Source: Dehalococcoidia bacterium
GTDB lineage: Bacteria; Chloroflexota; Dehalococcoidia; Lucifugimonadales; UBA2962
DNA: 64,000 nucleotides
Assembly: GCA_965116605.1 (NCBI GenBank)
Contig: OZ220697.1
Span: 1,617,427 to 1,681,426, forward strand
Direction of reading: 5' to 3'
Shown: piece by piece, positions 29,454-46,588 of the stretch
How the letters are laid out: every line of letters begins with the position of its first letter
Position numbering within the stretch: position 1 is the first letter of the stretch
The notes under the pieces: model-generated
What the model saw: the letters and a program-made list of their open reading frames with translations, nothing else
Databases searched by the model: none
What the model was told of the DNA's origin: nothing
Program-made: the position numbers and the translations under genes

Positions 29454-32400
29454 TCATTTGATGCGAATCTCCGCCGGGTCATCCTCATCGGTCACGTTGA
29501 TGGTAACCACGATGCTGTCCTTGGCACCGAGCGGGTCGGTGGCGGTCACCACAACGGTGTAGATGCTCTTGGCCTCGTAGTCCACATCGGCCTTCGTCTC
29601 TAGCTGGCCACTCTTCCTCGATATCTTGAAGGATCGAGCGTCTTCGCCGCCAATGGTGTATATGAGCAGGTCGCCGTCTGCGTCATGGGCGAAGACCGGG
29701 TCTCCGATGTTCTGCCCTTTCTCCGTGTTCTCGGGCACCTGCCGGCTCGTCGCGTCAGACTGGTCCCCTTCGGTGGTGAAGTCCTGGTCGGGGAACACCG
29801 GCGCGGCATTCACGCTCGGCAATATCGGCGCAGGACCAGTTGTCTTGCGCCCCCTCACAGGGGCTTCCAACAGTCCCGTCACATGTTGTTCAGCCTCATC
29901 TACGTCGTCCGTGTAGACCACCGCAGCTCGCAGACACCTGCCCACGTCGGCCGACTGAGGCGCGTAGATCTCTGAAGATGCGCCGTCTATCGGAGTCCAG
30001 ACAGCATCTTCACCGATGTCCCGGCACCTGGCCGATGGGGAATCGACCTCCGCGGACCGCTCCCACACCCACCGGGTGATGGCAACGCCACCGTCCGGGT
30101 CACTGAGCGTGGCCATCACCTCGATCCCTACGTGCGGCTGCCTCTGGGACAGGAGCACCTCCCCACCATCGTGCGTATTCACCACCTCGATGGCCACATC
30201 CAGTCTTGTCGTAAGCCTCCGGGGTCCCTCACCTGAGCGGGCCTCGATGACTATCGAGTAAGAGATCTTCTCCTCGAAGTCGGGCTCGCGACCCGCCCTG
30301 AAGCTGAGGACTCCATCGCTGTCGAACTCAAACTGGCTGCGGTCGTCACCGGACACCCTGTAGGTATATGGGGGGGTATCCTCTCCGTCCTGGTCGGTTA
30401 CAGTGTAGGTCCCGGCATCCACGGGGGTCTCTCCATCCCCGAGCGTGATGACCGGCTCGTCTTCGGGGTTCTCCCTGACTCTCAACACCGTCGGGGCGTC
30501 CTCATCGAAGGCGGGGGCTTCGTTCACCTCGGTCACCTTGACGACCACGTTCACCGTTGCCGAGGCGGTCGAGGGATCACTCGCCCTGATCCTCAGGACG
30601 TACTCGCTGTTATCGCCCTGGCCGGCATCCTCCCCGGGGGGCAGCGCGGGCGCGCCGGACAGGACCGTCGAATCCTCGTCCACGCGCTCGCCGGCGTCAG
30701 CGCCCAGCTCCTCGCCGACTCTGAGCTGGCCAGTTGCGCTGTCGATGGTGAACCGCACGTGACCGTCCTCGTCCTCAAGGTCGGGGGTGTCCAGGAGTTC
30801 GTAGAAAAGCACGTCCTCGTCCGTGTCGGTCGCCGTCAGGGGCTCCCCTATGTCCCTGCCCACGGCTGTGTTCTCGGGGACGGACCGGGAGACGTCGATG
30901 TAGATGGTGTCTTCATCCTCGTCCAGATCGGCGAAGGATGGAGCGGCATTGAACAGCGTCCTGGCCTCCACGCGGTTGGCGCTGACCGCCGAGGCGCTCT
31001 TGCGCGGGCCGAACCTGTCGGCATAGGTGACCGTAGCACGCAGGTACATGTCCACATCGGCCGGAACCGGTCTGCGAGCCGGCGATGTAGCCCCCTCTAT
31101 GTCCGTCCAGATCTTTCCGTCCTCGGACCTTGCCCACTGCCACCTTTCATCTGTCACTCCCTCATCCTCTTCCAGAAGGCCGGCAGAGAGGGGCCGGTCG
31201 ACCTGCGGCTGCAGCCTGTCGATGCCCACCGATCCCGGCTCGTCAACGTCCGTCACCACAACGGCCACGTCGTGCGTGCCTCCGGCGCCTTCGACCGTAA
31301 CCCTGTACACGTTCCTCTCCGCCATCGGCACTCCCTCAACGGAGGACCTCGGCTCCTCGTAGTCGGGGGGCTCCCTGAAGGCCAGCACCCCGCGTCGGAT
31401 GGTGAACAGTTCGCCATCACGACCACCCAGGGACCACCTGATGGGATCGCCGTCCTGGTCGTGGGCGCTGAGCGAGGTAACCGGATCCTTATCGTTCTCC
31501 GGGAAGGTTAACGAGCTAATGCCGGTTATCTCGGCGGGTTCATCCACGTCGTTGACCCTGATGGACACCACTATGCTCTCGGATGCACCCGACGGATCGG
31601 TGGCGGTCACGATCACCTCGTGCCTCCTGCTGGCCTCGTAGTCCAGCGGAGCCTTCGTCTTCAACTGGCCGTTGTTCCTGGAGATCGCAAACGACGCGGC
31701 GTCCTCACCACCCAGGGTATACATCACTAGGTCGCCGTCGTCGTCGTGGGCGCTCACCGGCGTTCCGATATCGTGCCCGGGCCCCCTGTCCTCGTCCACC
31801 CTCCGGCTGGTCCTGGCCGCATTGCCAACGAAATGCGGGGCGTCATTTGCGGGTCTCCTGATCTGCACGGGAGCCTCCGTCACGCCCGTCACCTGCTCGT
31901 CACCCGCATCCGCCGGGTTGTCTACGTTGTCCGTGTAGGTCGCCGTCGCCCGAAGACACCTGCCCGCGTCGGCATGCCTCGGCGTGTACGACGCCGACCG
32001 TGCCCCATCTATGGGGATCCAGTCTCCAACCGGGCCGATGCCGGAGGTACCCGGGTCGTCACGGCATTCGGCAGACGGCGTACCGCCCTCATCGACGGTG
32101 ATCTCGGCGGACCGTTCCCACAACCAGCTAGTGATCCTCACCCCGCCGTCCGGGTCGTCGGCCGTGGCAAGTACCGTTGTGCCCACCTGCGGCTCCCTCT
32201 GGGACAGAACCACCTCCCCCGCGTCCTCTCCATCCAGCACCTCTACGGTCACATCAAGGGTGGCGGTCAGCCTGCGGGTTCCCTCGCCGGAGCGGGCTTC
32301 GATTACTATCGAGTACGAGGCCTGCTCCTCGTAGTCGATCTCGTGGCCCTGCCTGAAGCTCAGCACGTCGTCAGCATTGAAGGCTAGGACATCGCTGTCG

Positions 32401-33686
32401 GCACCGGACACCGAGTACGTGTATGAGGTGTCGTCGTAGGGGTGAGGACCGGTGAAGGTGCCGTCCTCGTCGGTCACGGCATAGGTTGCGGCATCCACCG
32501 GGGTCTCACCGTCCTCACGTGTGATGACCGGTGGATCCGCTCCCTCCCTGACCCTGAGGACCGTCGGAGGGTCCTCATCGACAAAGTCAGGGGCCTCGTT
32601 CACATCGGCGAACGTAACTATCACGTTCACCGCTGCCGAGGCGGTCGAGGGATCGCTCACCTTCACCCTCAGGACATACTCGCCGTTTCCGGCGTCGCCT
32701 GCATCTTCATCCTGGGGCAGAGCGGGATCACCGGTCAGGGCCGTCGAGTCCTCGTCCTCCCGCTCGCCCGTGTCGGCCCCCAGTACCTTGCCGACCCTTA
32801 TCTGGCCGGAGAGGCTGTCCATGGTGAACCGCACCTGGCCGTCGTCATCGGCAAGGTCAGGCGTGTCCAGAAGTTCGTAGAACAGCAAGTCCCCGTCGGC
32901 GTCAGTAGCCGACACCGTCCCGCCTATGGCCGTTCCCACGGGCGTGTTCTCGGGGACGGACAGAAACACCGTCGCAACATCATCTCCATTGCGGTCGACG
33001 AAGCGAGGGGCGGCGTTGGCCAGGGTCCTGGCCTCGACACGGTACGCAGTCACAGCCGAAGCAATCTTTCCCGGGCCGAACCCATCGGAATAGGAGACGG
33101 TCGCCCGCAGGTACATGTCCACATCGGCCGGCTGCGGGCTCCGCCTCGGTGCCGTCGCCCCCACAATGTCCGTCCAGTTCTTCCCGTCCGCAGACCTCGC
33201 CCACTGCCACCTCTGGCCCGTCACCCCCTCATCCTCTTCCAAGAGGCTGGCCTCGAGTGGCCGATCGACCTGTGGCTGGGGCCTGTCGATGCTCGCCGTC
33301 CCGGCCTCGTCCACATCCGTGACCGTTACGGAAACATCGTGCGTGGTGAGCCCGACTGCGATGGTGACCCTGTACAGGTTGCTCCCCGCCTGCGATTGCG
33401 GGTCCTCGTAGTCGGGGGGAGCCTTGAATGCCAGCGCGCCGCCATCGATGCTGAACAGGTCGGCATCAGGGCCGTTGAGGGACCACTCGATGGGATCTCC
33501 GTCCTGGTCATGCGCCCTGAAGGTGCCGACCGGGGTCGTGCCGTTCTCGGCGTAGTCCAGCAGGGAGTCGGCCGTCTGAGCGTATGCCCGATGTCCCGGG
33601 GGACCGCCCGTCACTAGGTCCACGATCACCATGCCTGCGAGCACGATGACCAGTGCGATGGCTGGGGGTTTCACGTACAGGGGCAT
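29454..33686 (-). CDS. Giant cadherin-repeat surface protein (1410 aa) with an internal two-fold duplication
   Basis: An N-terminal TM/signal segment (PAIALVIVLAGMVIVDLV) is present. Cadherin linker motifs recur (VTDVDEAG, DVNEAPDF, VNDVDEPAEI, NVTDEDDPAEI). The two halves are collinear. Confidence 0.8.
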   Translation of the reverse strand: MPLYVKPPAIALVIVLAGMVIVDLVTGGPPGHRAYAQTADSLLDYAENGTTPVGTFRAHDQDGDPIEWSLNGPDADLFSIDGGALAFKAPPDYEDPQSQAGSNLYRVTIAVGLTTHDVSVTVTDVDEAGTASIDRPQPQVDRPLEASLLEEDEGVTGQRWQWARSADGKNWTDIVGATAPRRSPQPADVDMYLRATVSYSDGFGPGKIASAVTAYRVEARTLANAAPRFVDRNGDDVATVFLSVPENTPVGTAIGGTVSATDADGDLLFYELLDTPDLADDDGQVRFTMDSLSGQIRVGKVLGADTGEREDEDSTALTGDPALPQDEDAGDAGNGEYVLRVKVSDPSTASAAVNVIVTFADVNEAPDFVDEDPPTVLRVREGADPPVITREDGETPVDAATYAVTDEDGTFTGPHPYDDTSYTYSVSGADSDVLAFNADDVLSFRQGHEIDYEEQASYSIVIEARSGEGTRRLTATLDVTVEVLDGEDAGEVVLSQREPQVGTTVLATADDPDGGVRITSWLWERSAEITVDEGGTPSAECRDDPGTSGIGPVGDWIPIDGARSASYTPRHADAGRCLRATATYTDNVDNPADAGDEQVTGVTEAPVQIRRPANDAPHFVGNAARTSRRVDEDRGPGHDIGTPVSAHDDDGDLVMYTLGGEDAASFAISRNNGQLKTKAPLDYEASRRHEVIVTATDPSGASESIVVSIRVNDVDEPAEITGISSLTFPENDKDPVTSLSAHDQDGDPIRWSLGGRDGELFTIRRGVLAFREPPDYEEPRSSVEGVPMAERNVYRVTVEGAGGTHDVAVVVTDVDEPGSVGIDRLQPQVDRPLSAGLLEEDEGVTDERWQWARSEDGKIWTDIEGATSPARRPVPADVDMYLRATVTYADRFGPRKSASAVSANRVEARTLFNAAPSFADLDEDEDTIYIDVSRSVPENTAVGRDIGEPLTATDTDEDVLFYELLDTPDLEDEDGHVRFTIDSATGQLRVGEELGADAGERVDEDSTVLSGAPALPPGEDAGQGDNSEYVLRIRASDPSTASATVNVVVKVTEVNEAPAFDEDAPTVLRVRENPEDEPVITLGDGETPVDAGTYTVTDQDGEDTPPYTYRVSGDDRSQFEFDSDGVLSFRAGREPDFEEKISYSIVIEARSGEGPRRLTTRLDVAIEVVNTHDGGEVLLSQRQPHVGIEVMATLSDPDGGVAITRWVWERSAEVDSPSARCRDIGEDAVWTPIDGASSEIYAPQSADVGRCLRAAVVYTDDVDEAEQHVTGLLEAPVRGRKTTGPAPILPSVNAAPVFPDQDFTTEGDQSDATSRQVPENTEKGQNIGDPVFAHDADGDLLIYTIGGEDARSFKISRKSGQLETKADVDYEAKSIYTVVVTATDPLGAKDSIVVTINVTDEDDPAEIRIK

Positions 33687-33929
33687 CCTCGGGCTCGGTT
33701 GACGGGCGGGGCGGCGGCGCCATTACCGGGTCCTTCGGGGCCGGCAAGCCTGCGGCCCCTCATCGGAGCAGGCGGGCCATCGCCTTTTCGCAAAGGGCTA
33801 AGGCAACGTGAAGTCCTCCCCTAGCATACCCATGCATGCGTCCTCTCTTGGATTTCAAAGTGGCTGCCGGTCCGTGTGTGCGGGCCCCTCTTGCTGTGCG
33901 GAAGCAGGGAAGAACGACTCCCCCAACGC

Positions 33930-35075
33930 TCAGCTTCCCGATTCGTCGTGATGCCAGCCGGAGCCGAACACCAGCCCGTCATGCTCGACCAGCCAGAAGT
34001 GCTTGTCCTCAACCTCCCCCGTGACGGGGTTAACGTCCTCACGACCCACCCACACCCCCTCCTCGGTTGCCCTGAAGGACCCGTCGTCGAGCATTGCCTG
34101 CAGGTTCTCTGCGAATCCGTCGGCGTTGTAGTGGCCCAGGACTTCGCCTCCGGGCGTTGCGATGAACACGTACCACTGCGAATCGACGCTGTCGGGGCTG
34201 CTGTAGTAGGCCAGGGTGGCGTCCAATCCGTCGGCGTGATATCTGGCGATGGCCTCGTCCACGACGAATTTGGTGTATTCGTCGGCTGAGATGTGCCAGC
34301 CGGAGGCGAACAGCAGCCCATCATGCCGAACCACCCAGACGTGCTTGTACTCCAGCGCTCCGGCGTGGTCGTCTCCTATACCTCCGCTCTCCGGATTCTG
34401 GTAGACGTAGGAGACCCACTTGCCCTCCTCCGTAGCAGAGAGCATGTCCGGCCCAAAGTTGTACCCGGTGGCATCAATGCTCACCCAACCCTTCAGGTCC
34501 AGGCCGAGGCGGTGGGCGTCGGGATGCGCTATGACAAGATCGTTCTCGTCGATGATGAACACGTACCACTGACCGTCGACGCTCTGCTCACGGTTGTAGT
34601 GGGCGAGGGTAGCTTCCAGGCCCTGGGTCTCGTAGCGGGCGATGGCGCTCTCGACGAAGAACTTGGTGTACTCGGCGGGGGCCGACCTGGGCGGGATGGA
34701 CGCCACGACACCGCGGGCTATCTGTTCAGCCTCGGCAGGGGTAAGGCCTGGCTGTGGCTCCGCGATGGCCGCTATAGCGGCACTGACGATCTCTTCTACC
34801 TCTCTCTTGGATAGTCCAGCGTCCGGCTCAGGCATCTCTGTCATCGCCCTGCGGACGGCCTCCTCCACGTCTGCCGCCGTCAGTCCGGGTTCAGGCTGAG
34901 GCGGCGTGGGGACCTCTGCCATCCCCGCTCGGACTATCTCCTCAACCTCGGCTCGGGACAGCCCCGAGTCTCCATCTCTACAGGCAACCAGAGACAAGAC
35001 GACAAGAACTGTGATTGCTAGAAGAGCCATTGAGACCGCGCTCCGGTCATTCAACCTGCTTGCCAAATGCCGCAT
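33930..35075 (-). CDS. Lipoprotein with two Cache-like (sCache-type) extracellular domains
   Basis: The lipobox is LSLVAC. Two copies of ..YTKF.V..AIARY...GL.ATLA.Y......DGQWYVFI.D....V..HP...(K)H.W.V.HDGL.F.SGWH are present. Confidence 0.6.
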   Translation of the reverse strand: MRHLASRLNDRSAVSMALLAITVLVVLSLVACRDGDSGLSRAEVEEIVRAGMAEVPTPPQPEPGLTAADVEEAVRRAMTEMPEPDAGLSKREVEEIVSAAIAAIAEPQPGLTPAEAEQIARGVVASIPPRSAPAEYTKFFVESAIARYETQGLEATLAHYNREQSVDGQWYVFIIDENDLVIAHPDAHRLGLDLKGWVSIDATGYNFGPDMLSATEEGKWVSYVYQNPESGGIGDDHAGALEYKHVWVVRHDGLLFASGWHISADEYTKFVVDEAIARYHADGLDATLAYYSSPDSVDSQWYVFIATPGGEVLGHYNADGFAENLQAMLDDGSFRATEEGVWVGREDVNPVTGEVEDKHFWLVEHDGLVFGSGWHHDESGS

Positions 35076-35087
35076 TCGGGACTCCTG

Positions 35088-36527
35088 CTAGAGTCCGCCC
35101 AATACCACCGCCGAGGTTCCTGCGCTGGTCAACGTCTCCTCGTTGCCCCCATCGTCGGTGAAGGTGACCCGAACCTTGATGACCTTGCCGTTGTCCGATG
35201 CCTGGACCGTGTAGGTGGAACTCGTCGCCCCGTCGATCTCCGTGTCGTCTGCCAGCCACTGGTAGGTGTAGCTAACGTTCTCCAAGCCATCGGGGTCGGA
35301 GATATCGGACGTGTCGGCCGTGAGGGTCTGTCCCACCTGGGCGGTACCGCTGATGACGGGGGCGGGGGCCACCGTAATTCGGGACAAGGAGGACTGGCAG
35401 TTGTCCGTCGTGTTCGACTCATTCGTTACCGTGTCCACGCACACGCCGTAGTAGTACCTGCCCGCCGTGGACGGAGCGGTCAGATCGATCGACTGTGCGC
35501 TGATGCTCCCCCCCGCTATGGCCCCGACCGAGTCGGTGCCTTCCTCCGTGTCCGAAGACGTGATCGTAGAATCAGTGGAGCGGTAGTACCGCAGGGTTGT
35601 GGCCGGGGATTCCCCGGAACCCCTGTTGAGCACGCGCGTCGACAGGGTGAAGGTTTCCCCCGCTACAGGGTTGTAGTTACTTGCCCTGGGGCGATGTACC
35701 GTCAGGTTTATGCTACCGGGCTCCGATACTACAATTGATACATAGCCCGAACAGTTGTTGGTTGTGTCTGACTCCCCTGACACCGAATCCACGCACGAGC
35801 CGTAGTAGTAGGTGCCGGACGACGACGGGGCGGTCAGATCGATCCAGTGAGTGGCGTGGTCCCCCGATGCCAGCGCGTCGACCGAGTCGGTGCCCACCTC
35901 CGTGTCTGATGTAGAGATCGTGGTATCCGTGGACCGATAGTAGCGCAGGGTCGTGGCCGGGGCTCCTCCGTAACCGTCGTTCTCCGGGCGTGCCGTCAGT
36001 GTGAAAGTCCCCCCCGGAAGGAGGGGAACGTTGTGATACATGCCGCCCTTGTTACGCAGGTCCGGCCGGGCCTTGACTGTCACCGTCACCGCCGCCGAGC
36101 AGTTGTCCGTCGTGTCCGATTCCCCGGTCACAGAATCCACGCACGCGCCGTAGTAGTAGGTACCCGTCGTAGAGGGCGCGGTTAGATCAATGGACTGATC
36201 GCTGGTGCCCGCCGCCGCAAGCGCCCCGACCGCATCGGTGCCCAGCTCCGTGTCTGACGTTGCGATCGTTGCGTCCGTCGATCGGTAGTAGCGGAGCGTC
36301 GTCGCGGTAGACTCGCCATCGCCAGAGTTGGTCACCGTGGCTGACAGGGTGAACGACGCACCTGTATAGGGGCTCGTGTCGTCCACTGAAGGCGTCCCCA
36401 CTGCCAAATCTGGTGCAGAGTTGGCGTGGACGGGAGTATTCGAGGTCATCACTACCGCTGCCAGCGCCAGCGCTGCCCCAAGCGTGATGGCCGTCCCCAA
36501 GAGCCCGAGCCGCCTGGCAGCGGTCAT
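35088..36527 (-). CDS. Secreted CARDB-like repeat protein with a C-terminal ~90-aa module shared with the next gene
   Basis: A signal-like N-terminus is followed by three repeats of ..F.LSA.V.N.G.G.S.ATTLRYYRSTD.TI..SDTE.GTD.V.AL......IDLTAPS..GTYYYG.CVDSV.GESDT.NNCS. The C-terminus reads VGQTLTADTSDISDPDGL..YTYQWLADDTEIDGATSSTYTVQASDNGKVIKVRVTFTDDGGNEE. Confidence 0.7.
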   Translation of the reverse strand: MTAARRLGLLGTAITLGAALALAAVVMTSNTPVHANSAPDLAVGTPSVDDTSPYTGASFTLSATVTNSGDGESTATTLRYYRSTDATIATSDTELGTDAVGALAAAGTSDQSIDLTAPSTTGTYYYGACVDSVTGESDTTDNCSAAVTVTVKARPDLRNKGGMYHNVPLLPGGTFTLTARPENDGYGGAPATTLRYYRSTDTTISTSDTEVGTDSVDALASGDHATHWIDLTAPSSSGTYYYGSCVDSVSGESDTTNNCSGYVSIVVSEPGSINLTVHRPRASNYNPVAGETFTLSTRVLNRGSGESPATTLRYYRSTDSTITSSDTEEGTDSVGAIAGGSISAQSIDLTAPSTAGRYYYGVCVDTVTNESNTTDNCQSSLSRITVAPAPVISGTAQVGQTLTADTSDISDPDGLENVSYTYQWLADDTEIDGATSSTYTVQASDNGKVIKVRVTFTDDGGNEETLTSAGTSAVVLGGL

Positions 36528-36581
36528 CTCATGGCCCTCTCTTCACTTAGAGTTCGGTGGGCAACAACCACAATGGGGCAC

Positions 36582-39500
36582 CTACAACCCTCCCATGGTC
36601 ACCGCCGACGTGCCCACGCTGATCAGGGACTCCTCGTTGTCCTCATCATCCGTGAAGGTCACCCGCACCTTGATGACCTTGCCGTTCTCGGTTGACTGGA
36701 GCGTGTAGGTGGAGCTCGTCGCCCCGTCGATCTCCGTGTCGTTGGCAAGCCACTGGTAGCTGTACGACACGCCCGTCAGCCCGTCGGCATCGGAGATTCC
36801 GGACGTGCTGGCCGTCAGGGTCTGGCCAACCTGCTTCGTGCCGCTGATGGTCGGGGCGCCCGTCGCCGGGTTATTCGTGGTAGCGCTCTCATCTTCAGAC
36901 GTAGACCCGTCGCCGACGGAGTTGGTTGCGAATATGCGGACAGTGTACTCGGTCCCGTCACTGAGGCCCGTGATGGTGTATGAGTTCTCCGTCGAGGTAT
37001 CCGTCGTCGTTGCCTCCGATACGTCCGCTTCCGTGTCCCAGCTGTCCGAGTCCTCCTTCCACTGGACCGTGTAGCCCGTTATCTCCGCGCCTCCGTCCGA
37101 TTCGGGTTGCACCCATTCAACATCAAGCTCGCCCGCTGCCCCCGGTTCGACCCGTACGGCGCGGGGCTCGCTGGGAAGCGCCGCCGCCACCGTCCCTAAT
37201 TCCAGGGTTCCGGACTCAAAGTTGCCCAGATCGTCATCGAACTGCCATTTCACCGTGAGTTCCCTGCCCACATACCAGCGTTCGATCGTCCACCGACTTG
37301 TGGAGCCCGGCCTGTTCAAGAAGCTCGTTCCAAGCCAGATGCCGCCACTTGTATCGTCGTCGTAGTCCAGGACCCAGTGGAAGTTCCAGTAGGCATCGTC
37401 CCTCCCGTCCGCATCGCTTATGCCGGAAACATCCACGGTCAACTCCCCGCCCACCTCGACCGTGCCGGTAAAGGTGACGGTCCCCTGAGCAGCGTTGTTC
37501 TCCGCAGCAACCGTAGCGGGATCTACAACCGAGGTCGGAGCGCTGAACATCGTCTCCTCATTTCCCGCATCATCGGTGAAGGTCACCTTAACCTTCAGCC
37601 TCTCTCCTTCGTCCGCGTCCATCAGGAGGTAGCTCTCGCCGGTGGCGTCAGATATGTCGGTGAAGGTGTCCCCATCCCCTCTCATCCACTGGTAGGCAAA
37701 CGTAGCGTTGTCGAGTCCGTTCTCATCCTCGATGCTGTTTCTGCTGTAACCGGAAATGGCGGTGGTCCTGGCCAGTAGGGTATCTCCCACCTCGATCCCG
37801 TAGTGCACCTCTCCGTAAGAGCCGCTCGAATAGCGGTAAAGGATCCGGGGCGCTCCGGACGCCGGGCTGTTGGTACTATCGGCCGCCACCGCAACAGACG
37901 TAGGAGCGCTCTCCACAGCCTCGCTGTAGTTGTCGTCGTCTTTGAAGCTCAGCACGTACGTTATCCTCTTGCCGACATCGGCGGACCGGACCGTGTATCG
38001 GCTGCCCGTCGCGCCATCGACCGCCGTACCGTCCACATACCACTGGGTGGTATCGGTGCGATAGAGGTTGTCATCCGTCCCGTTCCTGTCATAGAAACCA
38101 CCAAAAGACCTCCTTAGTTCCACACCCACCTTCGGGATCCCGCTCAGATAGGGCGCGCCCCTCGCGGGATAGTCGGGATAGACAATGGGCCCGACGGTTT
38201 CGCTCACGACCGTCTCAGAATTGCCGCCGTCGTCGGTGAACGAGACGGACACCTTGACGGTTTCCCCACGTATCCAGCGATTGGGAGTCAGGGACTCTCG
38301 GGTGGAGCACGTGTATTCCCGACTGCCATCGTTGCAGAGCCAGGAATAGCTGAACCCAGAGTCGGGCATGCCGTTCTCGTCGTCGACGCCGGACATGTCG
38401 ACCGTCATGGAATGGTCCGATTTGATATGGGGTTCCCCCACGATGACCGGCTGTCCTGTCGCCGCCACGTTGGTTTCCTCCGCAACGGCATCGGTCGCGT
38501 CGCTTATCACGATCTCGTGGTTGCCCTCGTCATCTTCGAACTTGACCAGCACCTTGATCTCCCTGTCCAGGTCCGATGCGTCGATCTCATACGTGGACGA
38601 GGTTGCGTCATCTATGTCCTCGTCGGTCGTGCCGTCGCTGGAGATCCACTGGTACTCGAAAGTGGGGTTGGTGAGTCCGTCGTCGTCCGCAATGTCCGAC
38701 GTGGACGCGGTGAGGGTCCGGCCCACCGTCGTCGTGCCGCTTATGCTGGGCTGACCGGATGCCAGATTGTTGTCATCATCCGCATTTGGCAGGGTCAGGG
38801 GATCGCCACGACTGATGACGATGCCGTTGCCCCAGGTCATATCGAACTCAGCCGAGACCACCCTGACCGAGGCGGCTCCATCTCCGTCGCGAGTCACCGT
38901 CGTCCCATCGGTGCTGGTGCCGCCGGCCGACAATGTGACTTCTGTTGAGGCCAGCGAGCCTCCATAGGCTTCGAGGGTCAGGGAGATGTCGAAGGGCGTT
39001 GCGTTAGACACGTTGACCACGACATCGCCGTCGTCGTTCCGGGTCAACGTCAGACCGAATGCGAACGGGGCTCCCGGGTTATCCTCCAACGACAGCCGCT
39101 CCAGGGAGGTCCAGCCGTCAAAGAGTCCATCGGGAAGCTCGTCCAGTTGATTTTCGTTGAGGTAGAGGCTCTCCAGGCCGCTGAGGTCGTCGAAGACTTC
39201 GTCCGGGAGGTCGTCCAGTTCATTTTTGCCGAGACCGAGACTCACCAAGGAGCTGAGCTCACTGAAGATGTCGTCCGGAAGATCCTCCAGACTGTTGTTC
39301 CAAAAGCTCAGGTCCTCCAGGTTGTCCAGTTCGGAAAATAGGTCTGCGGAGAGGGAGCTCAGGCTGTTGCCTGTCAAGTACAGACGCTCGAGACTGTCCA
39401 GCTCGTCGAATATCTCATCTGGAAGGCCAGTCAAACCGTTCGAATTGAGATTCAGCTCCTCCAGCTCAGACTGGTTGTCCAGCAACCCCGACGGGAGAGA

Positions 39501-40703
39501 GGTCAAATCGTTGTACGACAGGTCTAGGACTTCCAACACGAGCAGGGAGTCAAACACGTCCTCCGGGAGGGATGAAATGGCGTTACGGTTCAGCTTGAGG
39601 TCCGTCAGCAGCGTCAGGGGGTCGAATACATCGCTCCCCAGCGTCGCCAGGTGGTTCTGATAGACCTGCAATTCGGTCAACCCGGAAAGGCCGGTAAAGA
39701 CTCCATTCGGCAACTCGGTTATGCGGGTCTTCCGGATTTCCAGAGACGGGACATTGGAGAGGCCCGCAAAGTCACCCGCTTTGAAGGAGTCGATTCTGGG
39801 TGCGGGGGGGATGCGGTTGGCCAGGTCCCCAACAAACAGGAACCAACCAGTGATTTCCGAAAGATGTGCGTCAGTTACGAAACCGCAATCCCTAACGTCC
39901 GGGTACCACAGGATCTCTTCCTGTACTACAGGTGTCCGCGAGCAGATGCCGGCGTCCTCAGCGACCACCGCCACCGTCGCCGGGCTGGTCAGGGATTCTG
40001 CATTGCCCAGATCATCGGTGAAGGAGACCCGGACCTTGATGGTCTTTCCCTCGTCGGACGCCTGCAACGTGTACTTTTGACCCGTTGCACCGTCGATGTC
40101 CGTATCCGTGGTGCCGTCGTTCGAAATCCACTGGTAGGAGAAGGTGACATTCTCCATGCCATCCTCGTCCTCGATGAGCCAGTTGCGGGACTGGAGCTGT
40201 CGCGTCACCCGGGGCTCCACGGAACCAGGCAACGGATCTCCGATTCTAGGCTCGCCCGTCGCGGGCGTATTCGTTTCGCGGGTCACCGTCACGGTGTAGG
40301 TCTGGGTGGCCTGGCCGTCTTCGGCGGTCACCTCCACGGTGATGGTGTTGCTTCCCACACTCAGCGAGACAGTGCCGTCTGAGTCCTCGACACCACCGAG
40401 CTTGATGACGTAGCCCGCCCCGGAATGGTTGACCGTGGGCGTGACGGTCGTCTCCGAGACGCTCCTGTACACGCTCGCCGTGTAAGAGGTCGTGCCGGAT
40501 GCGAATGTGCCGAAGTCCACGTTGCTCAGCGTCAGGGCGCTGAGGGTGGCGTCGGTGCTCTGGGTCTGGGCCAGGGCCGTCGGAGTCAGACCCGTTGCTG
40601 CCAGTGCCAGCGCAACCGAAAGTATGAGCGCCGCTCTAGAGCGTCCCGGCCTGACCGCGACCCATGCCAGCCTCGATCTGAGGATTGTCACTGCCCTTGT
40701 CAC
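36582..40703 (-). CDS. Giant surface protein (1373 aa): cadherin-like beta-sandwich, leucine-rich repeats, FN3 and seven ~90-aa YQW..DG..I.GAT..Y.....D.GK.I.V.V.F.DD.GN.E modules
   Basis: - Signal-like N-terminus.
- ATLSALTLSNVDFGTFASGTTSYTA.. (cadherin-like beta sandwich).
- About 12 LRRs (L..L.L..N.L..LP...F..L).
- FN3 (PSEPRAVRVEP...ITGYTVQWKE..YTITGLSDGTEYTVRIFATN). Confidence 0.8.
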   Translation of the reverse strand: MTRAVTILRSRLAWVAVRPGRSRAALILSVALALAATGLTPTALAQTQSTDATLSALTLSNVDFGTFASGTTSYTASVYRSVSETTVTPTVNHSGAGYVIKLGGVEDSDGTVSLSVGSNTITVEVTAEDGQATQTYTVTVTRETNTPATGEPRIGDPLPGSVEPRVTRQLQSRNWLIEDEDGMENVTFSYQWISNDGTTDTDIDGATGQKYTLQASDEGKTIKVRVSFTDDLGNAESLTSPATVAVVAEDAGICSRTPVVQEEILWYPDVRDCGFVTDAHLSEITGWFLFVGDLANRIPPAPRIDSFKAGDFAGLSNVPSLEIRKTRITELPNGVFTGLSGLTELQVYQNHLATLGSDVFDPLTLLTDLKLNRNAISSLPEDVFDSLLVLEVLDLSYNDLTSLPSGLLDNQSELEELNLNSNGLTGLPDEIFDELDSLERLYLTGNSLSSLSADLFSELDNLEDLSFWNNSLEDLPDDIFSELSSLVSLGLGKNELDDLPDEVFDDLSGLESLYLNENQLDELPDGLFDGWTSLERLSLEDNPGAPFAFGLTLTRNDDGDVVVNVSNATPFDISLTLEAYGGSLASTEVTLSAGGTSTDGTTVTRDGDGAASVRVVSAEFDMTWGNGIVISRGDPLTLPNADDDNNLASGQPSISGTTTVGRTLTASTSDIADDDGLTNPTFEYQWISSDGTTDEDIDDATSSTYEIDASDLDREIKVLVKFEDDEGNHEIVISDATDAVAEETNVAATGQPVIVGEPHIKSDHSMTVDMSGVDDENGMPDSGFSYSWLCNDGSREYTCSTRESLTPNRWIRGETVKVSVSFTDDGGNSETVVSETVGPIVYPDYPARGAPYLSGIPKVGVELRRSFGGFYDRNGTDDNLYRTDTTQWYVDGTAVDGATGSRYTVRSADVGKRITYVLSFKDDDNYSEAVESAPTSVAVAADSTNSPASGAPRILYRYSSGSYGEVHYGIEVGDTLLARTTAISGYSRNSIEDENGLDNATFAYQWMRGDGDTFTDISDATGESYLLMDADEGERLKVKVTFTDDAGNEETMFSAPTSVVDPATVAAENNAAQGTVTFTGTVEVGGELTVDVSGISDADGRDDAYWNFHWVLDYDDDTSGGIWLGTSFLNRPGSTSRWTIERWYVGRELTVKWQFDDDLGNFESGTLELGTVAAALPSEPRAVRVEPGAAGELDVEWVQPESDGGAEITGYTVQWKEDSDSWDTEADVSEATTTDTSTENSYTITGLSDGTEYTVRIFATNSVGDGSTSEDESATTNNPATGAPTISGTKQVGQTLTASTSGISDADGLTGVSYSYQWLANDTEIDGATSSTYTLQSTENGKVIKVRVTFTDDEDNEESLISVGTSAVTMGGL

Positions 40704-42014
40704 GTCGTACCTCCGAGGCCGTCACTCATGCGTCTGCAACATGGTCACGAATTGTACCAAATGCGTGCAGTCTCACACCTGTACAGACGGTACTTGGACG
40801 GCAGCGAATCAACCCATGCCTAAGGGGGCCACGAGTGCAATGATCGGCGAAACCGCCACTGGTCATATCCCTATGGCTCATACATTCAATGCGCCGATTT
40901 CCATCAGCCCTCGGATCGCGAACTGTCATTGTTTACGGTCCTCTTGCTGCGACCTAGTCTTAGTCCACTAAGTGTAGATCGAAAGCGTCTGTTTCGCCGA
41001 GATGTTCTGCAACTATTGTCCTCCTGCTGATGTCGCAAGACTCTACCCGCGACCCTTCCATTTGTGGCACTCGCTGTCAAAGCACCCTCCCCGGAAACCC
41101 ACTGTGCAAACGGGAACAAATGTGCTGGGTGGTCCGCTACCAATCAGTTCAAACAAAAGTATGCCGGCCAGGTTCGCTCACACCCGACGCCGGGCCAACC
41201 TTCATTCCGGCATTCCGGGAGCCAACGTCAACCCGGGGAAGTAGCTGTGGAATTCGCTGACAATAGCAGGGCGCGAATCCGAGGATCCAGGCGCTCCAAA
41301 GGCTGTCTTAAGGCCATCTAGCACGATCAGTATTGGACGTGCCAAGCCCGGGCGCGTCACGACCTGTTGGCTTCCGGGCGGGCCGTCTCCTGCTCCACCC
41401 GCTTGCCACCTTGGCACGGTATCAGCCATTCGCCCACCGGCGGCTACCTGTTCGTCTAGACTCAGACTGACCTCCGTGTCCGCGACCACGGCTCGGTCGG
41501 TGTCTCTAGGCGTTTATGAAGGTGTAGGCCTACCAAAGCGATCTACGACACCTTGCATTTCCTCAAAGCAGGCATTGCTCGAAGCTCAAGTTCCCACTTT
41601 ACTTGTTAGATTCACATACAACCAAGACTATCGCTATCACATCGATCCGGGTTACCTCGAGGCACGGCAGTCCAAACAGCGTTTGGAATTCCTCACATCA
41701 AATCGATCATCTGGCCTAAGCATCCATTTAGCCAATAGCGCCTTTTTCCTTATGCCCACTATGATACCTTGACTACGTGATGTACCACCTGCAATAGCTC
41801 CGTGAGTCGGTGTTGTGACTAGATCAGATGAATTCACGTGGTGACTCTTCTCTTGTGCCTGGGCAGTCAATCAGCAAATTTTCAAGGAGTGCTCCAATGA
41901 TTTCTATGATTTGCTGTCGGACATTGTGAATCATGCGGAGATGGTTTGCGAATGATCCCCTTTGGTGGTGCTGGTCTCGCATGGTCCTTCTCGTGGCCAG
42001 CCCAGCTCTTTCGT

Positions 42015-42048
42015 CTAAGGCGTGTATAAGAGCAGTTATACGCGCCTT
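42015..42048. repeat. Left dif-like recombination core site (inverted repeat L)
   Basis: CTAAG GCGTGTATAA GAGCAG TTATACGCGC CTT. Two 10-bp arms are inverted with respect to each other (9/10) around a 6-bp asymmetric centre. The 29 bp at 42020-42048 are perfectly repeated in inverse orientation at 43481-43509. Confidence 0.85.
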
Positions 42049-42190
42049 ATCGCCTTGGAACCCCCTGGGTGCGAATGTCCAAGACTGCCGCATGGCAAAC
42101 CATCACTAGCAGGCGACCCTAACCGGGCGCAGACCAGAGTTCCCAAGGTCGCAGACAACTCCATCGCGGGTCGCCCTGTATGCGATCCTC

Positions 42191-43447
42191 TCAGGGAGCT
42201 GGGCGGTGATGGCCATAGAACTGGGCAACCGCACCCTTGCCGGCGGTCTCGTTACGGATGTAGTGCGCCGGCATCCTGGAAGTACGCCAGCGTCCGGCGG
42301 TCATCAGGCTGGGCAGTTCGATTCCAGCCCTGGCCAGGTCGCGAGCCATTCCAACCCGTGGCGAGTGGCCGCTGAATCCGTCTCCAAGCCCAGCCACCTG
42401 TGCTGCCATCTTGATTCGCTTGGCGATTTGATTGGGCCGCAATCCAAACACGGTGTCGTCATCAGACGCCTCATTTCGGATTGAACATAGCGCCGCCATT
42501 GTCGCTGTGGAAACGAAGGCGACGGCGCCCTCGCCTTCGGCGTCAGTCTTGGAACGTCGAATCAGGAGTCGCCCCGTGCCGTCGGCTGCCGAAGCAATGT
42601 CCCTCCAGATCAGCACGGCCGCTTCGGATACCCTCAGCATGGCGTCCCTCATGAGGCTGATCATCGCAACGTCAAGGTTGCCCCGGGCTCTGGCGGTCTG
42701 AGGACTCTCAAGTCTACCGCCTCGACCGCGCCGCGGCTTACAGGCGGTGGAACGTATAGCGGCCAGGGCCTCGGCCGTCAGACCCTCCGCCTGCTTCTGG
42801 GACCTTCCCGCCATGCGAGTCGCGCTCCTGAGCATCCTCCTAACCTCGGGACCTGCACAAGGATCCTCGATCCCCGCGGTCCTGTGGGCGAAGGCGATTG
42901 CTGCTGCGGCCACTCGCAGCGTCGCCGGCCTGTGCCCCAGCTCTTCTATGCGCTCGGCAAGATACGCGGCGACATGCACCGGATCGGCAGGCAACGGCTG
43001 CACACCCTTGACCATTGCCCACATGCAGAAACTTCGCCACTGGACATCGTAGTTTGCAATCGTAGTGCGTGAGACTTCATGATCGAGTATCGCGTTAAGG
43101 TTGCCTATATCGGATTCTGAGAGATCCTTTATTGGACTCTGAGGCGCAGCAGGCAGGGACTTATAGACACCTGTTTGATTGATGCAAACGCCGTTAGATT
43201 CCAAGCCATAGTTAGTCCCTTTGCGCGCACCTTCTTTGTAAGATTCATCTGCGGCCGCAGAGGTTTGATCAGCCTTCGCAATTGAGGTGTGAGTCTCTAT
43301 CGCTTCGAGACTGGAGTTCCCTGACTCCAATTCCGAAATGAGACGACGAGCTAGGCTATGGCCAACTCCTTTACTCATTGGATGGTGGTCGATCGGGAGG
43401 TGGCTCGTGTGCACGCTGTGGAAGACTTTCGGCCTGTGGCGCGCCAT
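42191..43447 (-). CDS. Tyrosine site-specific recombinase (Xer/phage-integrase family)
   Basis: Catalytic signature in order: MLRVSEAAVL (Arg), SGHSPRVGMARDL (HxxR), GRWRTSRMPAHYIRN (Trp/His...Tyr). A SAM-like N-domain is present (TIANYDVQWRSFCMWA...HVAAYL). The ATG at 43447 has AAGGAG 5 nt upstream. The track's GTG 43507 lies inside the inverted repeat. Confidence 0.85.
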   Translation of the reverse strand: MARHRPKVFHSVHTSHLPIDHHPMSKGVGHSLARRLISELESGNSSLEAIETHTSIAKADQTSAAADESYKEGARKGTNYGLESNGVCINQTGVYKSLPAAPQSPIKDLSESDIGNLNAILDHEVSRTTIANYDVQWRSFCMWAMVKGVQPLPADPVHVAAYLAERIEELGHRPATLRVAAAAIAFAHRTAGIEDPCAGPEVRRMLRSATRMAGRSQKQAEGLTAEALAAIRSTACKPRRGRGGRLESPQTARARGNLDVAMISLMRDAMLRVSEAAVLIWRDIASAADGTGRLLIRRSKTDAEGEGAVAFVSTATMAALCSIRNEASDDDTVFGLRPNQIAKRIKMAAQVAGLGDGFSGHSPRVGMARDLARAGIELPSLMTAGRWRTSRMPAHYIRNETAGKGAVAQFYGHHRPAP

Positions 43448-43480
43448 AAATCTCCTTGGCTCTTTGATAACCTGTCTGCC

Positions 43481-43514
43481 AAGGCGCGTATAACTGCTCT
43501 TATACACGCTTTAG
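43481..43514. repeat. Right dif-like recombination core site (inverted repeat R)
   Basis: AAGGCGCGTATAACTGCTCTTATACACGC TTTAG is the reverse complement of 42015-42048 with one mismatch in the outer 5 bp. The ORF track shows the same peptide, MYKSSYTRL, at 42022(+) and 43507(-). Confidence 0.85.
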
Positions 43515-44100
43515 GCTCAGGTGCTGAGAAGACCTCCCGTTCGGTTGTGGTTTGGCTCGGTTACCTTCGGCTACCGACTCCTTCTCTTGCAGGGCAACGA
43601 CCCCACCTTCCTATAGCGCCCGTTTGCGTTGCCTGAGTTCACGTCCATTGCCTTGCGTTTAGATATATAACGAATCGAGAGTTGGGACGTTGCGACCGGA
43701 TGCCTGCATATGGCGGCGACGGGGCCTCGAGATGAAACTCTCCGAGCGGCCCGCGACATTGACCGTCCGCACCTGCATGGCCAAGGAGTTCTCATTTTCC
43801 GGCCTCGAGGGGGTGACTCGAAGTCAGTAGGCGGATGAGTGCAAGGAGACTCGTTCCCCGCGGGGTATGTCGACCGCGGTGCCTGGTCGCGGCGCGAGAT
43901 ACCGGCGATGGGCTGGGTCTTCGATTGGGAAGGCTATCCCGGATCGACGGGGGCTGGTTCAAGCCGATTGGTCAGCCCTGGATTGCACTTGGAGAATACA
44001 GGCTCGCCGCCGGGGCGACCTGAGGTACCGATCAGCTGGGGACGATACCCTGGCGGAGAGTCCTAGGCCCGTGTTGGTCCGCCGTTACGGCCCCGGCCTG

Positions 44101-44421
44101 TCAGCTACGGCTCTTGTGGAAACCACCCCTGGTGGGCCCGGCCAGCGCCGCGCTGATCCTGGCTAGCTTGCTCTGCGCGGCCGTGCGCCTTGCATCCATC
44201 GATTTGCGGACCAAGGTCGGCAGATTCCCGACCTGCGAGCTGAGCTCAGCTTCACGCTGGAGGTGCATCAGGCGCACCCTGTAGAGTTCGGACAGGTCCG
44301 ATCCGGTGTGACCCGGCCGACCGCAAAGAATGCACCGGTGCTCGCCGTCCGTCGATACCACCAGCCCGCGGCAATGCGGCCGGGGGCAGTCAAAGCTCTG
44401 GCCCTCTCCACATACAGTCAT
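44101..44421 (-). CDS. Small zinc-ribbon protein, unknown function
   Basis: The CPRPHC...CILC pattern (four Cys in two pairs) is followed by a helical tail. 106 aa. Confidence 0.4.
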   Translation of the reverse strand: MTVCGEGQSFDCPRPHCRGLVVSTDGEHRCILCGRPGHTGSDLSELYRVRLMHLQREAELSSQVGNLPTLVRKSMDARRTAAQSKLARISAALAGPTRGGFHKSRS

Positions 44422-44494
44422 ACGAGTGCCGCGGCCAAACAGCCTCCGATAGGCTGATTAGCGACCAGCGGCCCGGGTTCATGGGCGTCACGGT

Positions 44495-46588
44495 TCAAGC
44501 TCCGGTCCACCGGGACCACGAATATAGTGCGCCACTCCATGTCGGCTCCGTTGCCGCTACGCTTGAATCCGCTGGCTGCTCCCCCTGCGTTGCCATCTCG
44601 TCTCCGGAGGGGGTCGGGACCGTGTCCTCGGACTGATCCTTGGCGGTACCGCCGAACACATTGTCAGGAATCTCATCGCCTACCTGCGTGTTGCGGCGGA
44701 TGATGTCGGCAAGCGTGGTCGCACGCACCTCGGCCATCAACTCTTCGTTAGACAGGAAGTACGGGTCGTTCTCGAACCAGTATCTGTCTCCGTCGCGAAG
44801 GCGGAGAAACTGGTCCGCAATGATCGTGTGGAAGGTCTCGCCGACCATCGCGCCGGCCACGTGATCCTCGGCAAGTCCACCTGTCCAGATGTCGAGATCC
44901 TCTATCCCCGCATATGCCAGGCCCAACGCCTCCTGCACCGCGGGATCAGAGGTGACGTCGGCAAACGACTCGGCAGGCGGCAGTCCATAGGCACTTCGAA
45001 TCACGTTGTAGCTCGGCAGGCCGTGATCGCGGCCCCGCTGTATGTTCAGTGCCGCAAGATCACGCACCGGTCCCCCGGGGGCGCCGAATAGCAGATTGCG
45101 GACCTCGTCGACCAGCTTCGCATCGACCTTCTGGGCTGCCTGCCTGGCCAGGCCCCGCAGAAGTCCCGATATACCCTGCTCGGAAATGAGGGACGGGTTG
45201 AAGAATGCGTCCCGCAGCGAGAGAGGCTGCTCTGCTCCCAGCGAGTCGACGCGAAGCAGGCTCGGGGAGAGCATCGTGTGGCCGAACCTATATGCAGCCG
45301 TGGAGAACTCGTTTGCGATGGTGGGATCGACCCGGGGATCGTAGCCGCCGTATGGCCCGATCGCCCCGCGACCGAGCAGCAGGGGGAGGAACTCCGAATA
45401 GGTGATGACCTGCATCTGCGCCCCGACTATCTTTCGGGCCAGCTCGAAGATCTCGTGGCCGCTGAGGTCCGGGTCTTGCGAGGCGATGGTCTCGGCCAAA
45501 CGGTTGTGCTCCCTGACAAACAGCGTGTGCAGGGCGGTGAGGCCAACCTGCTCATTGGCTCTGATGTCGCCCGCCAGGAACAGATCTGTGCGGTCGCTGC
45601 CTCCCTCATTGTCCAATCCCGCCTCGTTGTACGGCAGGAACTTGCCATCTCCGGAGGTGAGCAGCATGCCGGTGCCGTCATCGGCTCTGAGCGCTCGGCT
45701 CCTGCATGCGTCCGAGCCGTACACGTTGGACCCGTCGATGAAGGCGCTGATCGTGTTGATCTGCTGCCTAGGGGCACCGGGGCCCATGCCTGTTTCCGGG
45801 TCGTACGCCGAGCGGCTAAAGTCGATGGTCTCAAGGCCGGTCCCCATCGGGTCGAAGAGCGTATCCCCGGCGGGAACTGGTATTGGCAGTGCCTCTCTGG
45901 GGTCCGCCTCTGGCGTCAGGCTTATGTCGTGGTCGAGGAACTGCCCCCACTGCCAGACCATGTCCGTAGCCTCGGCAACGTTTGCGATCGGCCAGGTTTG
46001 CGAGGAGACGAAATTGCTTATCAGGCGGCCATTCGGAAGGCCCGCGGGGATCCTCGCGGCAATCGCATACTCAAAGGGCACTGCGGCCCGCCTGGCAAGG
46101 TTGGTGTTGGCCATTCCACGTTCGGGGTGAGCGCGGTTGTTACTCCATCCGTCTATCGAGCGGGGCTCGAACGCAGGAGGGAACTCCCGCAGGCCGATGA
46201 CAGACTCAGCTCCAACGGTCCAGTCCAGATCGACCCCGGACCAGACGAACTGGCGCCCGTTCCCCCTGGCGTCGGAAAAGTTCAGCCACTGACCACCCAC
46301 GTGCAGCGCCAGACACTCGATACCCTCGCTGAGCACAGGCGAGATGTCGATGATCACGCTCCAGTCATCGGCCTCAACCTCCGAACTGTTGTAGAAGACG
46401 TTCGTGACGGTATATGTCGTGCCCAGCCAGGAGAAGGCATCGGAGGTAAGGGTGCCCACGGTACGCCCCGAGGACGAGCCATAACCCAGGAGTCCCTCAT
46501 AACCCCCAACCTCGATCAGGGCGTACCACACGCCCCTATCGGGAGCCCTGTAGGGGACAGTGTCTGGATCACCCTCAGCGTGGGCCAC
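44495..46588 (-). CDS. Animal-type haem peroxidase family protein (secreted)
   Basis: WQWGQFLDHDISLT (distal His region) and TAAYRFGHTMLSP (proximal His) are hallmark strings of the peroxidase-cyclooxygenase superfamily. A signal peptide is encoded in frame upstream of the track's GTG start (see finding). Confidence 0.85.
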   Translation of the reverse strand: MAHAEGDPDTVPYRAPDRGVWYALIEVGGYEGLLGYGSSSGRTVGTLTSDAFSWLGTTYTVTNVFYNSSEVEADDWSVIIDISPVLSEGIECLALHVGGQWLNFSDARGNGRQFVWSGVDLDWTVGAESVIGLREFPPAFEPRSIDGWSNNRAHPERGMANTNLARRAAVPFEYAIAARIPAGLPNGRLISNFVSSQTWPIANVAEATDMVWQWGQFLDHDISLTPEADPREALPIPVPAGDTLFDPMGTGLETIDFSRSAYDPETGMGPGAPRQQINTISAFIDGSNVYGSDACRSRALRADDGTGMLLTSGDGKFLPYNEAGLDNEGGSDRTDLFLAGDIRANEQVGLTALHTLFVREHNRLAETIASQDPDLSGHEIFELARKIVGAQMQVITYSEFLPLLLGRGAIGPYGGYDPRVDPTIANEFSTAAYRFGHTMLSPSLLRVDSLGAEQPLSLRDAFFNPSLISEQGISGLLRGLARQAAQKVDAKLVDEVRNLLFGAPGGPVRDLAALNIQRGRDHGLPSYNVIRSAYGLPPAESFADVTSDPAVQEALGLAYAGIEDLDIWTGGLAEDHVAGAMVGETFHTIIADQFLRLRDGDRYWFENDPYFLSNEELMAEVRATTLADIIRRNTQVGDEIPDNVFGGTAKDQSEDTVPTPSGDEMATQGEQPADSSVAATEPTWSGALYSWSRWTGA

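Follow-up and report, generated by a model that had tools for sequence, protein, structure and literature searches.

A putative recombination cassette, consisting of one recombinase gene between two inverted sites, is described here from the chromosome of a Dehalococcoidia bacterium (assembly GCA_965116605.1, contig OZ220697.1). The stretch that was analysed, called the window in the following, comprises 64,000 nucleotides (positions 1,617,427 to 1,681,426 of the contig), and window coordinates count from its first letter as position 1. A repeat search of the window yielded inverted arms of 46 nt at 42003-42048 and 43481-43526 which are 87% complementary. The two sites found there, S1 and S2 (Table 1), enclose one open reading frame (ORF) on the minus strand, which probably starts with the ATG at 43447, preceded by an AAGGAG Shine-Dalgarno sequence and located 33 nt inside S2, and ends 141 nt before S1. 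S1 reads TAAGGCGTGTATAA-GAGCAG-TTATACGCGCCTTA, and the reverse complement of S2, TAAAGCGTGTATAA-GAGCAG-TTATACGCGCCTTG, equals S1 save for two outer positions. The original prediction, made from the letters of the window, had seen a perfect 29-bp inverted repeat around a single recombinase gene, which was confirmed; the longer repeat it had proposed (34 bp with one mismatch) comes to 33 bp with one mismatch, and a weak extension reaches 46 nt. The core 26-mer GCGTGTATAAGAGCAGTTATACGCGC occurs exactly twice in the 64 kb, once per strand and with no mismatch, and in none of 100 shuffled sequences. In the same way the minimal pattern TATAA-N6-TTATA is found at S1 and S2 only and is absent from the shuffles. 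Each site is in itself nearly palindromic, with arms agreeing in 12 of 13 positions around the asymmetric centre GAGCAG. This centre had been recognised before, together with arms of 10 bp matching in nine positions, which are in fact 13 bp long. The centre of S2, CTGCTC, is the reverse complement of the centre of S1.

Read in the geometry of Cre targets each site consists of 13 bp (…GCGTGTATA), an 8-bp spacer (A-GAGCAG-T), and a further 13 bp (TATACGCGC…). Written as TAAGGCGTGTATA-AGAGCAGT-TATACGCGCCTTA the arms match in 12 of 13 positions and end in GTATA, and they are similar to the arms of loxP, which end in …CGTATA / TATACG…. Targets of Cre-type enzymes have been characterised by half-sites of 11-15 bp with at most two asymmetries, an 8-bp spacer, a distance of at most 1 kb from the recombinase gene, and a G/T-A-T/G-A motif beside the spacer, and about 50% of the sites predicted in this way were active in experiments (PMC10250229). 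All these features are present in S1 and S2, which are located within 150 bp of the gene. A dif-type site, as originally proposed, was ruled out: both arms of each site have the same sequence (one of 13 positions differs) and the orientation resides in the centre alone, whereas dif has distinct XerC and XerD arms. The more general claim that each repeat is a recombinase core site is supported by the lox-like architecture, which recurs in about 40 loci. S1 and S2 are predicted to be lox-like targets and not dif-type ones. Two additional candidates in the window, a weak lox-like sequence with another centre at 58739-58756 (GCATAA-GTGCTT-TTATAC) and a half-site plus centre lacking the second arm at 29656-29669 (GTGTATATGAGCAG), are within shuffle expectation and probably due to chance.

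Pfam recognises no more than the generic Phage_integrase domain in the encoded protein (6.7e-12). When the protein was compared with the sequences in the PDB, Cre and its engineered derivatives were the only matches (E 4e-15), in two stretches spanning both domains and with an identity to Cre of about 25-30% over the core. All seven active-site residues of Cre (R173, E176, K201, H289, R292, W315, and Y324) are aligned. An assignment to the Xer family, considered in the original prediction, had to be given up, the scores being 30.5 bits for NCBIfam XerA with a cut-off of 220 and 18 bits for PRK00283 with a cut-off of 279. The Cre-homologous core, residues ~108-418, is under strong constraint, as shown by ratios of nonsynonymous to synonymous substitution rates (dN/dS) of 0.07-0.14 against relatives in which synonymous sites are saturated (dS>1.2). 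The N-terminal ~107 amino acids are predicted to be disordered and evolve near neutrality, with similar proportions of nonsynonymous and synonymous differences (pN~pS); the frame of this region is open in all lineages, and the families of the canonical loci described below retain a MAQGT start. The exact protein, P0001, was found on two contigs. An AlphaFold model built from a 12-sequence alignment had a predicted local distance difference test score (pLDDT) of 53 and was too poor to use. Judged by its sequence the enzyme is of the Cre type rather than of the Xer type and appears to be catalytically intact.

Table 1. Features of the recombinase cassette and its surroundings, in window coordinates.
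Feature	Position	Strand	Remarks
Whole unit	42003..43526		includes weak outward extension of the repeat (46-nt arms, 87%)
S1, predicted lox-like site	42016..42049		3' of recombinase gene; architecture as in ~40 related loci
S1 outer arm	42017-42029		AAGGCGTGTATAA
S1 centre	42030-42035		GAGCAG
S1 inner arm	42036-42048		TTATACGCGCCTT
Predicted Cre-type tyrosine recombinase (P0001)	42191..43447	-	418 amino acids; Pfam PF00589, PDB Cre match
S2, predicted lox-like site	43480..43513		33 nt upstream of start codon
S2 inner arm	43481-43493		AAGGCGCGTATAA
S2 centre	43494-43499		CTGCTC
S2 outer arm	43500-43512		TTATACACGCTTT
Segment expected to invert	42030-43499		centre to centre, ~1.46 kb
AT-richer stretch, 1.3 kb	40704..42002		from S1 to surface-protein operon; no gene, RNA or homolog detected
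Featureless stretch, 0.57 kb	43527..44100		from S2 to ORF of 106 amino acids
Surface-protein operon	29454..40703	-	secreted repeat proteins and Cache sensor; Pfam
Cadherin protein	29454-33686	-	
sCache	33930-35075	-	
CARDB	35088-36527	-	
LRR/cadherin-like/fn3	36582-40703	-	

About 2,000 homologs of the recombinase were found in a collection of 5.8 billion proteins. The best 120 are 63-76% identical and stem nearly all from metagenome assemblies, and the named genomes among the homologs are metagenome-assembled genomes (MAGs) of Dehalococcoidia. From plasmid and viral collections the family is essentially absent, with identities of at most 38% and of 36%, respectively. About 75 loci, designated here by L and a number, were fetched, and the architecture is conserved in about 40 of them from Dehalococcoidia: wherever the recombinase is at least ~61% identical and the contig long enough, an inverted lox-like pair brackets the gene, the exceptions being L004 and L028. 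The sites are 1.25-1.56 kb apart from centre to centre in these relatives, and homologs with less than 50% identity have no inverted site pair. The window copy is a 'solo' member of this large chromosomal family of uncultured Dehalococcoidia, which sits at the edge of surface-protein operons and defence-gene regions. No description of Cre-type genes between inverted targets as a conserved family in nature was found in the literature.

In the family the arms of the sites stay constant as AARGCGYGTATAA across lineages with saturated synonymous sites, and in the most distant members they are shifted to GGATAA/TTATCC in both sites together. The centres vary, with at least 11 variants: GAGCAG (window), ATACAG, ATATAG, ATACAA, ATGCAG, ATACTG, ATAAAG, GTGCCC, ATTCCG, TTGCCG, and TTTCCG. 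In all loci but one (39 of 40) the partner site has the exact reverse complement as its centre. In L025, where the protein is identical to that of its relatives, the centres are ATACAA/TTGTAT as compared to ATACAG/CTGTAT, which is a concordant double change, and in L071/72 the first spacer position is changed in mirrored fashion. As far as can be judged from sequences, conserved arms with a matched variable centre are the pattern to be expected of arms contacted by protein and a strand-exchange region that needs to match. The mirrored co-variation suggests that the two sites are constrained to recombine with each other, which with sites in inverted orientation would lead to inversion. The single deviating locus is L020 (5371-5404, on a contig with 3x coverage), where the downstream centre is ATATAG instead of CTATAT with the arms unchanged, so that the two sites point in the same direction and would permit excision of the cassette. 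As the centre A-TATA-G is nearly palindromic, such a flip needs changes at just two outer positions.

Another line of evidence comes from the different histories of cassettes and flanks. Between families the DNA left of the upstream site is too different for alignment all the way to the site, where identity jumps to 97-98%. In three families the ~1.45 kb between the centres differ by 0-0.4%, synonymous and non-coding positions included, while in the 400 bp outside the divergence is 0.5-11% on the left and up to 33% on the right, and in the gene of a paralog beyond the downstream site it is 2-19%. In the families of P0070 and P0068 and in L011 divergence begins directly past the outer arm of the downstream site. 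The discordance is real because flanks and cassette would be equally similar if there had been no recombination, and it fits a replacement of the cassette by crossovers at both sites. Two solo copies in one genome, L001 and L003, are 96-100% identical; their similarity starts inside the outer arm of the upstream site and extends 1.8 kb beyond the downstream site. Among the loci in general, upstream sites have variable outer arms. A further kind of junction is seen in L077-79 around 8215-8235, where the paralog, a conserved element, and AAAGCGTGTATAA-ATACAG-TTAT are followed abruptly by unrelated DNA with no recombinase, encoding first an OmpR-type response regulator and then a surface-protein operon with Big/Filamin-domain proteins. 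This appears to be a joint at the site from which the cassette is missing; an occupied partner was not found, as no locus shares its far flank.

Taken together, the cassette is rather probably a self-contained module of the Cre/lox type, the normal reaction of which would be inversion of its own gene segment and which could be exchanged as a whole. Four monomers would bind the four 13-bp arms, with strand exchange taking place in the 6-bp overlap inside the 8-bp spacer. As the asymmetric centres of S1 and S2 mirror each other, a reaction between the sites would invert the 1.46-kb cassette and could not excise it. This expectation of the original prediction is supported and corresponds to the established behaviour of Cre with inverted lox sites (PMC10250229). 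Other DNA with a compatible cassette could replace the whole cassette by a double crossover involving both sites, a natural cassette exchange like the one proposed for dif modules. Binding of the enzyme to S1 and S2, ongoing inversion in this genome, and an effect on neighbouring genes are inferred, and the mirrored co-variation of the centres is the only, indirect support that the enzyme would recombine its sites with no need of accessory factors.

Most relatives of the window cassette are part of a larger arrangement. In these canonical loci a leftward operon for secreted repeat proteins (cadherin-like, Ig, fn3, LRR; often with sCache) is followed by the upstream site, the rightward recombinase gene, and the downstream site, and then by a conserved element of ~100 nt, a leftward paralog of the recombinase with 267-270 amino acids, an HTH_17 gene, and highly variable genes of the defence type, among them SNF2, cyclic oligonucleotide-based antiphage signalling system (CBASS), restriction-modification, and RES genes. 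The paralog (264-272 amino acids, 45% identical to the recombinase, e.g. L009:4827-5636 on the minus strand) occurs in 28 loci and converges on the downstream site. It has no Lys hairpin, carries Asp instead of His in box II, and ends before the Trp and the Tyr, and with these catalytic residues missing or changed it should be catalytically dead. It is nevertheless maintained with a dN/dS of 0.12-0.24 and has 442 relatives at E<=1e-20; it could serve to lock the reaction or to give it a direction. No description of this dead paralog was found in the literature. The conserved non-coding element, ~110 nt outside the downstream site of canonical loci (e.g. L005:4424-4538), has the form …GCTGAGACTG…CTCCTATCCGCTCCTTCC…AACCCCAT. 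On the strand of the paralog it reads AGAGGAG-N8-ATGGGGTTA…, with a stop 11 codons on at a fixed position, and an RNA fold in it had no support from covariation. Outside the downstream site the element is common to the canonical loci and to the solo loci L001 and L030.

Defence genes also adjoin solo cassettes from other metagenomes. At L032:2548-5739 (minus strand), L035:8643-10997 (minus strand), and L034:1928-5218 (plus strand) the direct neighbours are a restriction-modification gene of the Eco57I type, which diverges from the upstream site, a ResIII helicase, and a DUF499 protein, and the association with defence genes thus holds without the paralog. A more complex arrangement was observed on one circular contig of 4.36 Mb, where L016 and L076 (3,908,199-3,965,586) form two mirrored modules which are 8-9% divergent. 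They bracket a 54.5-kb segment of defence genes with the two dead-paralog genes as its ends. The four sites, U1, D1, D2, and U2, share the centre ATATAG, alternate in orientation, and delimit three modules, and outward-facing surface-protein operons are found on both outer sides.

In the window the cassette is located between stretches in which, as the original prediction had noted, no confident gene is found. In both flanks (40704-42002 and 43527-44100) there was no Pfam, Rfam, or tRNA match, no promoter or terminator match, and no homolog in any fetched locus by blastn and tblastx, and the gap that corresponds to the left flank measures only ~0.25-0.4 kb in related loci. A remnant of the dead paralog was not detected in these uncalled flanks by tblastn, and no third site was found within 42 kb to the left or 20 kb to the right of the cassette. 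Orthologous regions reached via a haem peroxidase gene, L074 and L075 from relatives of 82% and 76% identity, carry no cassette over the stretch available. They cease to resemble the window at ~44094-44318, which is 0.6-0.8 kb from S2 and not at S2, and the contig of a 99%-identical strain ends at 44494. A clean empty site at the orthologous locus was not found in these 82%, 76%, and 99% relatives. The variable segment at this locus is larger than the cassette.

Left of the cassette the proteins of the operon at 29454-40703 carry domains of the eukaryote type (LRR_8, cadherin, fn3, and CARDB). To its right, at 44495-49490, a haem peroxidase of the animal type is encoded together with a divergent hybrid histidine kinase/response regulator of the GAF-PAS type, and relatives have kept the two as a pair. 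Several homologs of the peroxidase come from MAGs named for sponge symbionts (Candidatus Poriferisodalis and Chloroflexi MAGs), which hints at a sponge-associated host. Beyond 51040 the 99%-identical strain L073 diverges wholly and has an HTH_17 gene and an SMC/AAA gene instead, so this is a region variable at the strain level. About 15 kb away from the cassette there is an intact transposase gene of the IS256/Mutator family (Pfam 1.5e-133), which adjoins a gene with a weak match to NucS-like nucleases (25922-27145 and 28187-29317, minus strand).

Several observations weigh against the interpretation as an inverting module. In none of the loci were both orientations seen: the 28 canonical contigs all have the cassette the same way round, and the two contigs with the protein of the window agree with each other. 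Provided that the 28 contigs are independent, a minority orientation would amount to some 10% at most, and their uniformity argues against frequent flipping in these relatives. In favour of inversion, the cassette of the window, beside the same kind of surface-protein operon, points the opposite way as compared to L024 and to the 28 canonical contigs: the sCache gene of the window has 80% DNA identity to that of L024 and is on the same strand, with the recombinase on the opposite one. The window has, however, no dead paralog, conserved element, or HTH_17 gene, and an extra ~1 kb beside the operon (1.3 kb from operon to site as compared to ~0.3 kb in canonical loci), and therefore the difference in orientation could stem from relocation and not from inversion in place. 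The conserved element outside S2 would have proved a flip in place; an nhmmer profile search for it in the window was negative and this claim was dropped. A distinction of 'u' and 'd' types of arms as a marker of past inversion was not strict across lineages and was not used. Gene conversion between the repeats, instead of selection, might in principle keep the centres mirrored. In addition, the loci compared for cassette and flank divergence had been picked for an identical recombinase protein, a bias toward similar cassettes which by itself does not explain the diverged flanks. Finally, a consensus scan of 40500-44600 found no sigma-70-like promoter or terminator, bearing in mind that promoters of Chloroflexota may differ. 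A promoter within the cassette, considered originally, did not turn up in or around it, and a function as a switch thus lacks support from the sequence. That the cassette acts as a switch on the adjacent operon is possible, as recombinase, gap, and LRR operon are co-directional in the window and read-through could occur; a switching of transcription into 41.5-42.0 kb or 43.5-44.1 kb is speculation.

The strongest competitor of the inverting module is a transposon-like element which would be excised to a circle and re-integrate at lox-like pseudo-sites; the repeats would be its ends, and the recombinase would act as a tyrosine transposase. This is unlikely, even though quite a number of observations would suit it: the L001/L003 pair within one genome, with similarity setting in inside the upstream outer arm; the solo cassettes in unrelated contexts beside restriction-modification and other defence genes; the direct centres of L020, a state that permits excision; the resemblance of L077-79 to a junction without cassette; and the variable outer arms of upstream sites, as expected for DNA derived from a target. 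In 39 of 40 loci, however, the centres are mirrored, and ends of this kind cannot be joined to a circle in the standard way; the odd locus, L020, is a contig of 3x coverage. The unit shared by L001 and L003 runs on for 1.8 kb past the downstream site, and the element outside this site is common to canonical loci and the solo loci L001 and L030, though not to the window. The cassette-free orthologs L074 and L075 break 0.6-0.8 kb from S2 and not at the repeats. A conventional transposon flanked by duplications had been named in the original prediction as the finding that would speak against it; reading the sequence beside the repeats of S1 and S2 revealed no target-site duplication. An insertion sequence or transposon with terminal inverted repeats was rejected on this ground and because L001 and L003 share the upstream end only.

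It is less likely still that the recombinase is the integrase at the end of a larger defence island which integrates and excises via one site, the second inverted site being accessory. The canonical order, in which the cassette is followed by the dead paralog, the HTH_17 gene of the excisionase type, and variable defence genes, would agree with such an island, as would the circular genome in which two mirrored modules bracket 54.5 kb of defence genes. The window, on the other hand, contains neither paralog nor HTH_17 gene, nor a third site over 42 kb to the left and 20 kb to the right, a directly repeated partner site is not present within the 6-7 kb of island sequence at hand, and a strictly conserved inverted pair around the gene would be left unexplained. 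That no recombination takes place today, the sites being relics or mere operators for self-repression of the gene, is very improbable: S2, 33 nt upstream of the start codon, is where binding would block transcription, and all related contigs show a single orientation, but a perfect 29-bp repeat with an intact, constrained gene does not suggest a relic, an operator needs no second site downstream, no inverted orientation, and no mirrored centres, and breakpoints of similarity fall at the sites.

Going beyond the inverting cassette itself, it may tentatively be proposed that a chromosomal 'lox-module' system exists in which Cre-like enzymes, the dead paralog, and alternating arrays of sites invert, lock, exchange, or lose modules in pairs. 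With the same reserve, the modules might include defence islands of tens of kb, possibly repositioned beside the eukaryote-like surface-protein operons. Such a system, if true, would be a self-encoded counterpart of the Xer-dependent dif modules, on the chromosomes of an uncultured lineage. The cassette would offer a natural example of a Cre-type enzyme permanently bracketed by its own inverted targets, a geometry which genome engineers build deliberately for stable inversion and cassette exchange. With at least 11 spacer variants occurring in nature, the recombinase/site pairs of the family are a ready series that may serve as orthogonal tools, and the pair of live and dead paralog could reveal how a simple recombinase is locked or given a direction. 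If the reading as arrays of modules holds, the gene shuffling by dif modules would be extended from Acinetobacter plasmids to the chromosomes of uncultured Chloroflexota, where defence islands would be affected together with surface proteins believed to mediate interaction with a host.

Among known systems Cre/loxP of phage P1 and the other Cre-type systems (Dre/rox, Vika/vox, and the YR series) are closest. P1 has a single loxP, which is used in circularisation and dimer resolution. Cre is the closest relative with a solved structure and has the same catalytic residues, and the likeness of the sites comprises 13-bp inverted arms ending in GTATA, an 8-bp spacer with an asymmetric 6-bp overlap, proximity to the gene, and no evident accessory arm-type sites. 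Unlike Cre, the enzyme has only ~25-30% identity in the core and an additional unconstrained N-terminus of ~107 amino acids, its gene is chromosomal in Dehalococcoidia and bracketed by two inverted sites, and in most relatives a dead paralog is found beside it.

FLP/FRT of the yeast 2-micron plasmid has a similar layout, with the gene flanked by inverted targets, so that inversion and not deletion results. The plasmid is small, its FRT sites form part of 599-bp repeats, and its copy number is amplified by means of inversion, a role of which there is no sign on a 2.7-Mb chromosome. In Hin/hix of Salmonella, too, two inverted sites enclose the invertible segment, and the gene of the recombinase is part of it. 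Hin, a serine recombinase, depends on an enhancer and Fis, and its segment carries the promoter for fljBA, whereas the window has a tyrosine recombinase and no outward promoter was found. Invertons of tyrosine recombinases, such as fimS with FimB/FimE, the promoter inversions of Bacteroides, and vsa/vpma of Mycoplasma, have short inverted repeats and adjoin surface-protein genes as does the cassette described here. In these invertons the recombinase is encoded outside a short promoter-bearing segment and both orientations are common among genomes, while in the window the recombinase gene is the sole content of the segment and 28 of 28 related contigs show one orientation.

The pdif modules of Acinetobacter undergo inversion of single modules and replacement via cointegrate formation and resolution, and are gained or lost only in pairs (PMC13141974). 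The comparison with a pdif-like module carrying its own recombinase, offered as an alternative in the original prediction, agrees with the data from the related loci: a discrete module of 1.46 kb is bounded by inversely oriented core sites, identical cassettes occur in diverged flanks, and alternately oriented sites form a four-site array in one related genome, the only one in which such an array was seen, the window itself holding one module and two sites. The pdif modules reside on Rep_3 plasmids, have distinct XerC and XerD arms, depend on the XerCD of the host, and carry cargo rather than a recombinase, whereas in the module of the window the arms are alike, the orientation comes from the centre only, and what would be its own Cre-type enzyme is encoded inside, on the chromosome of another phylum.

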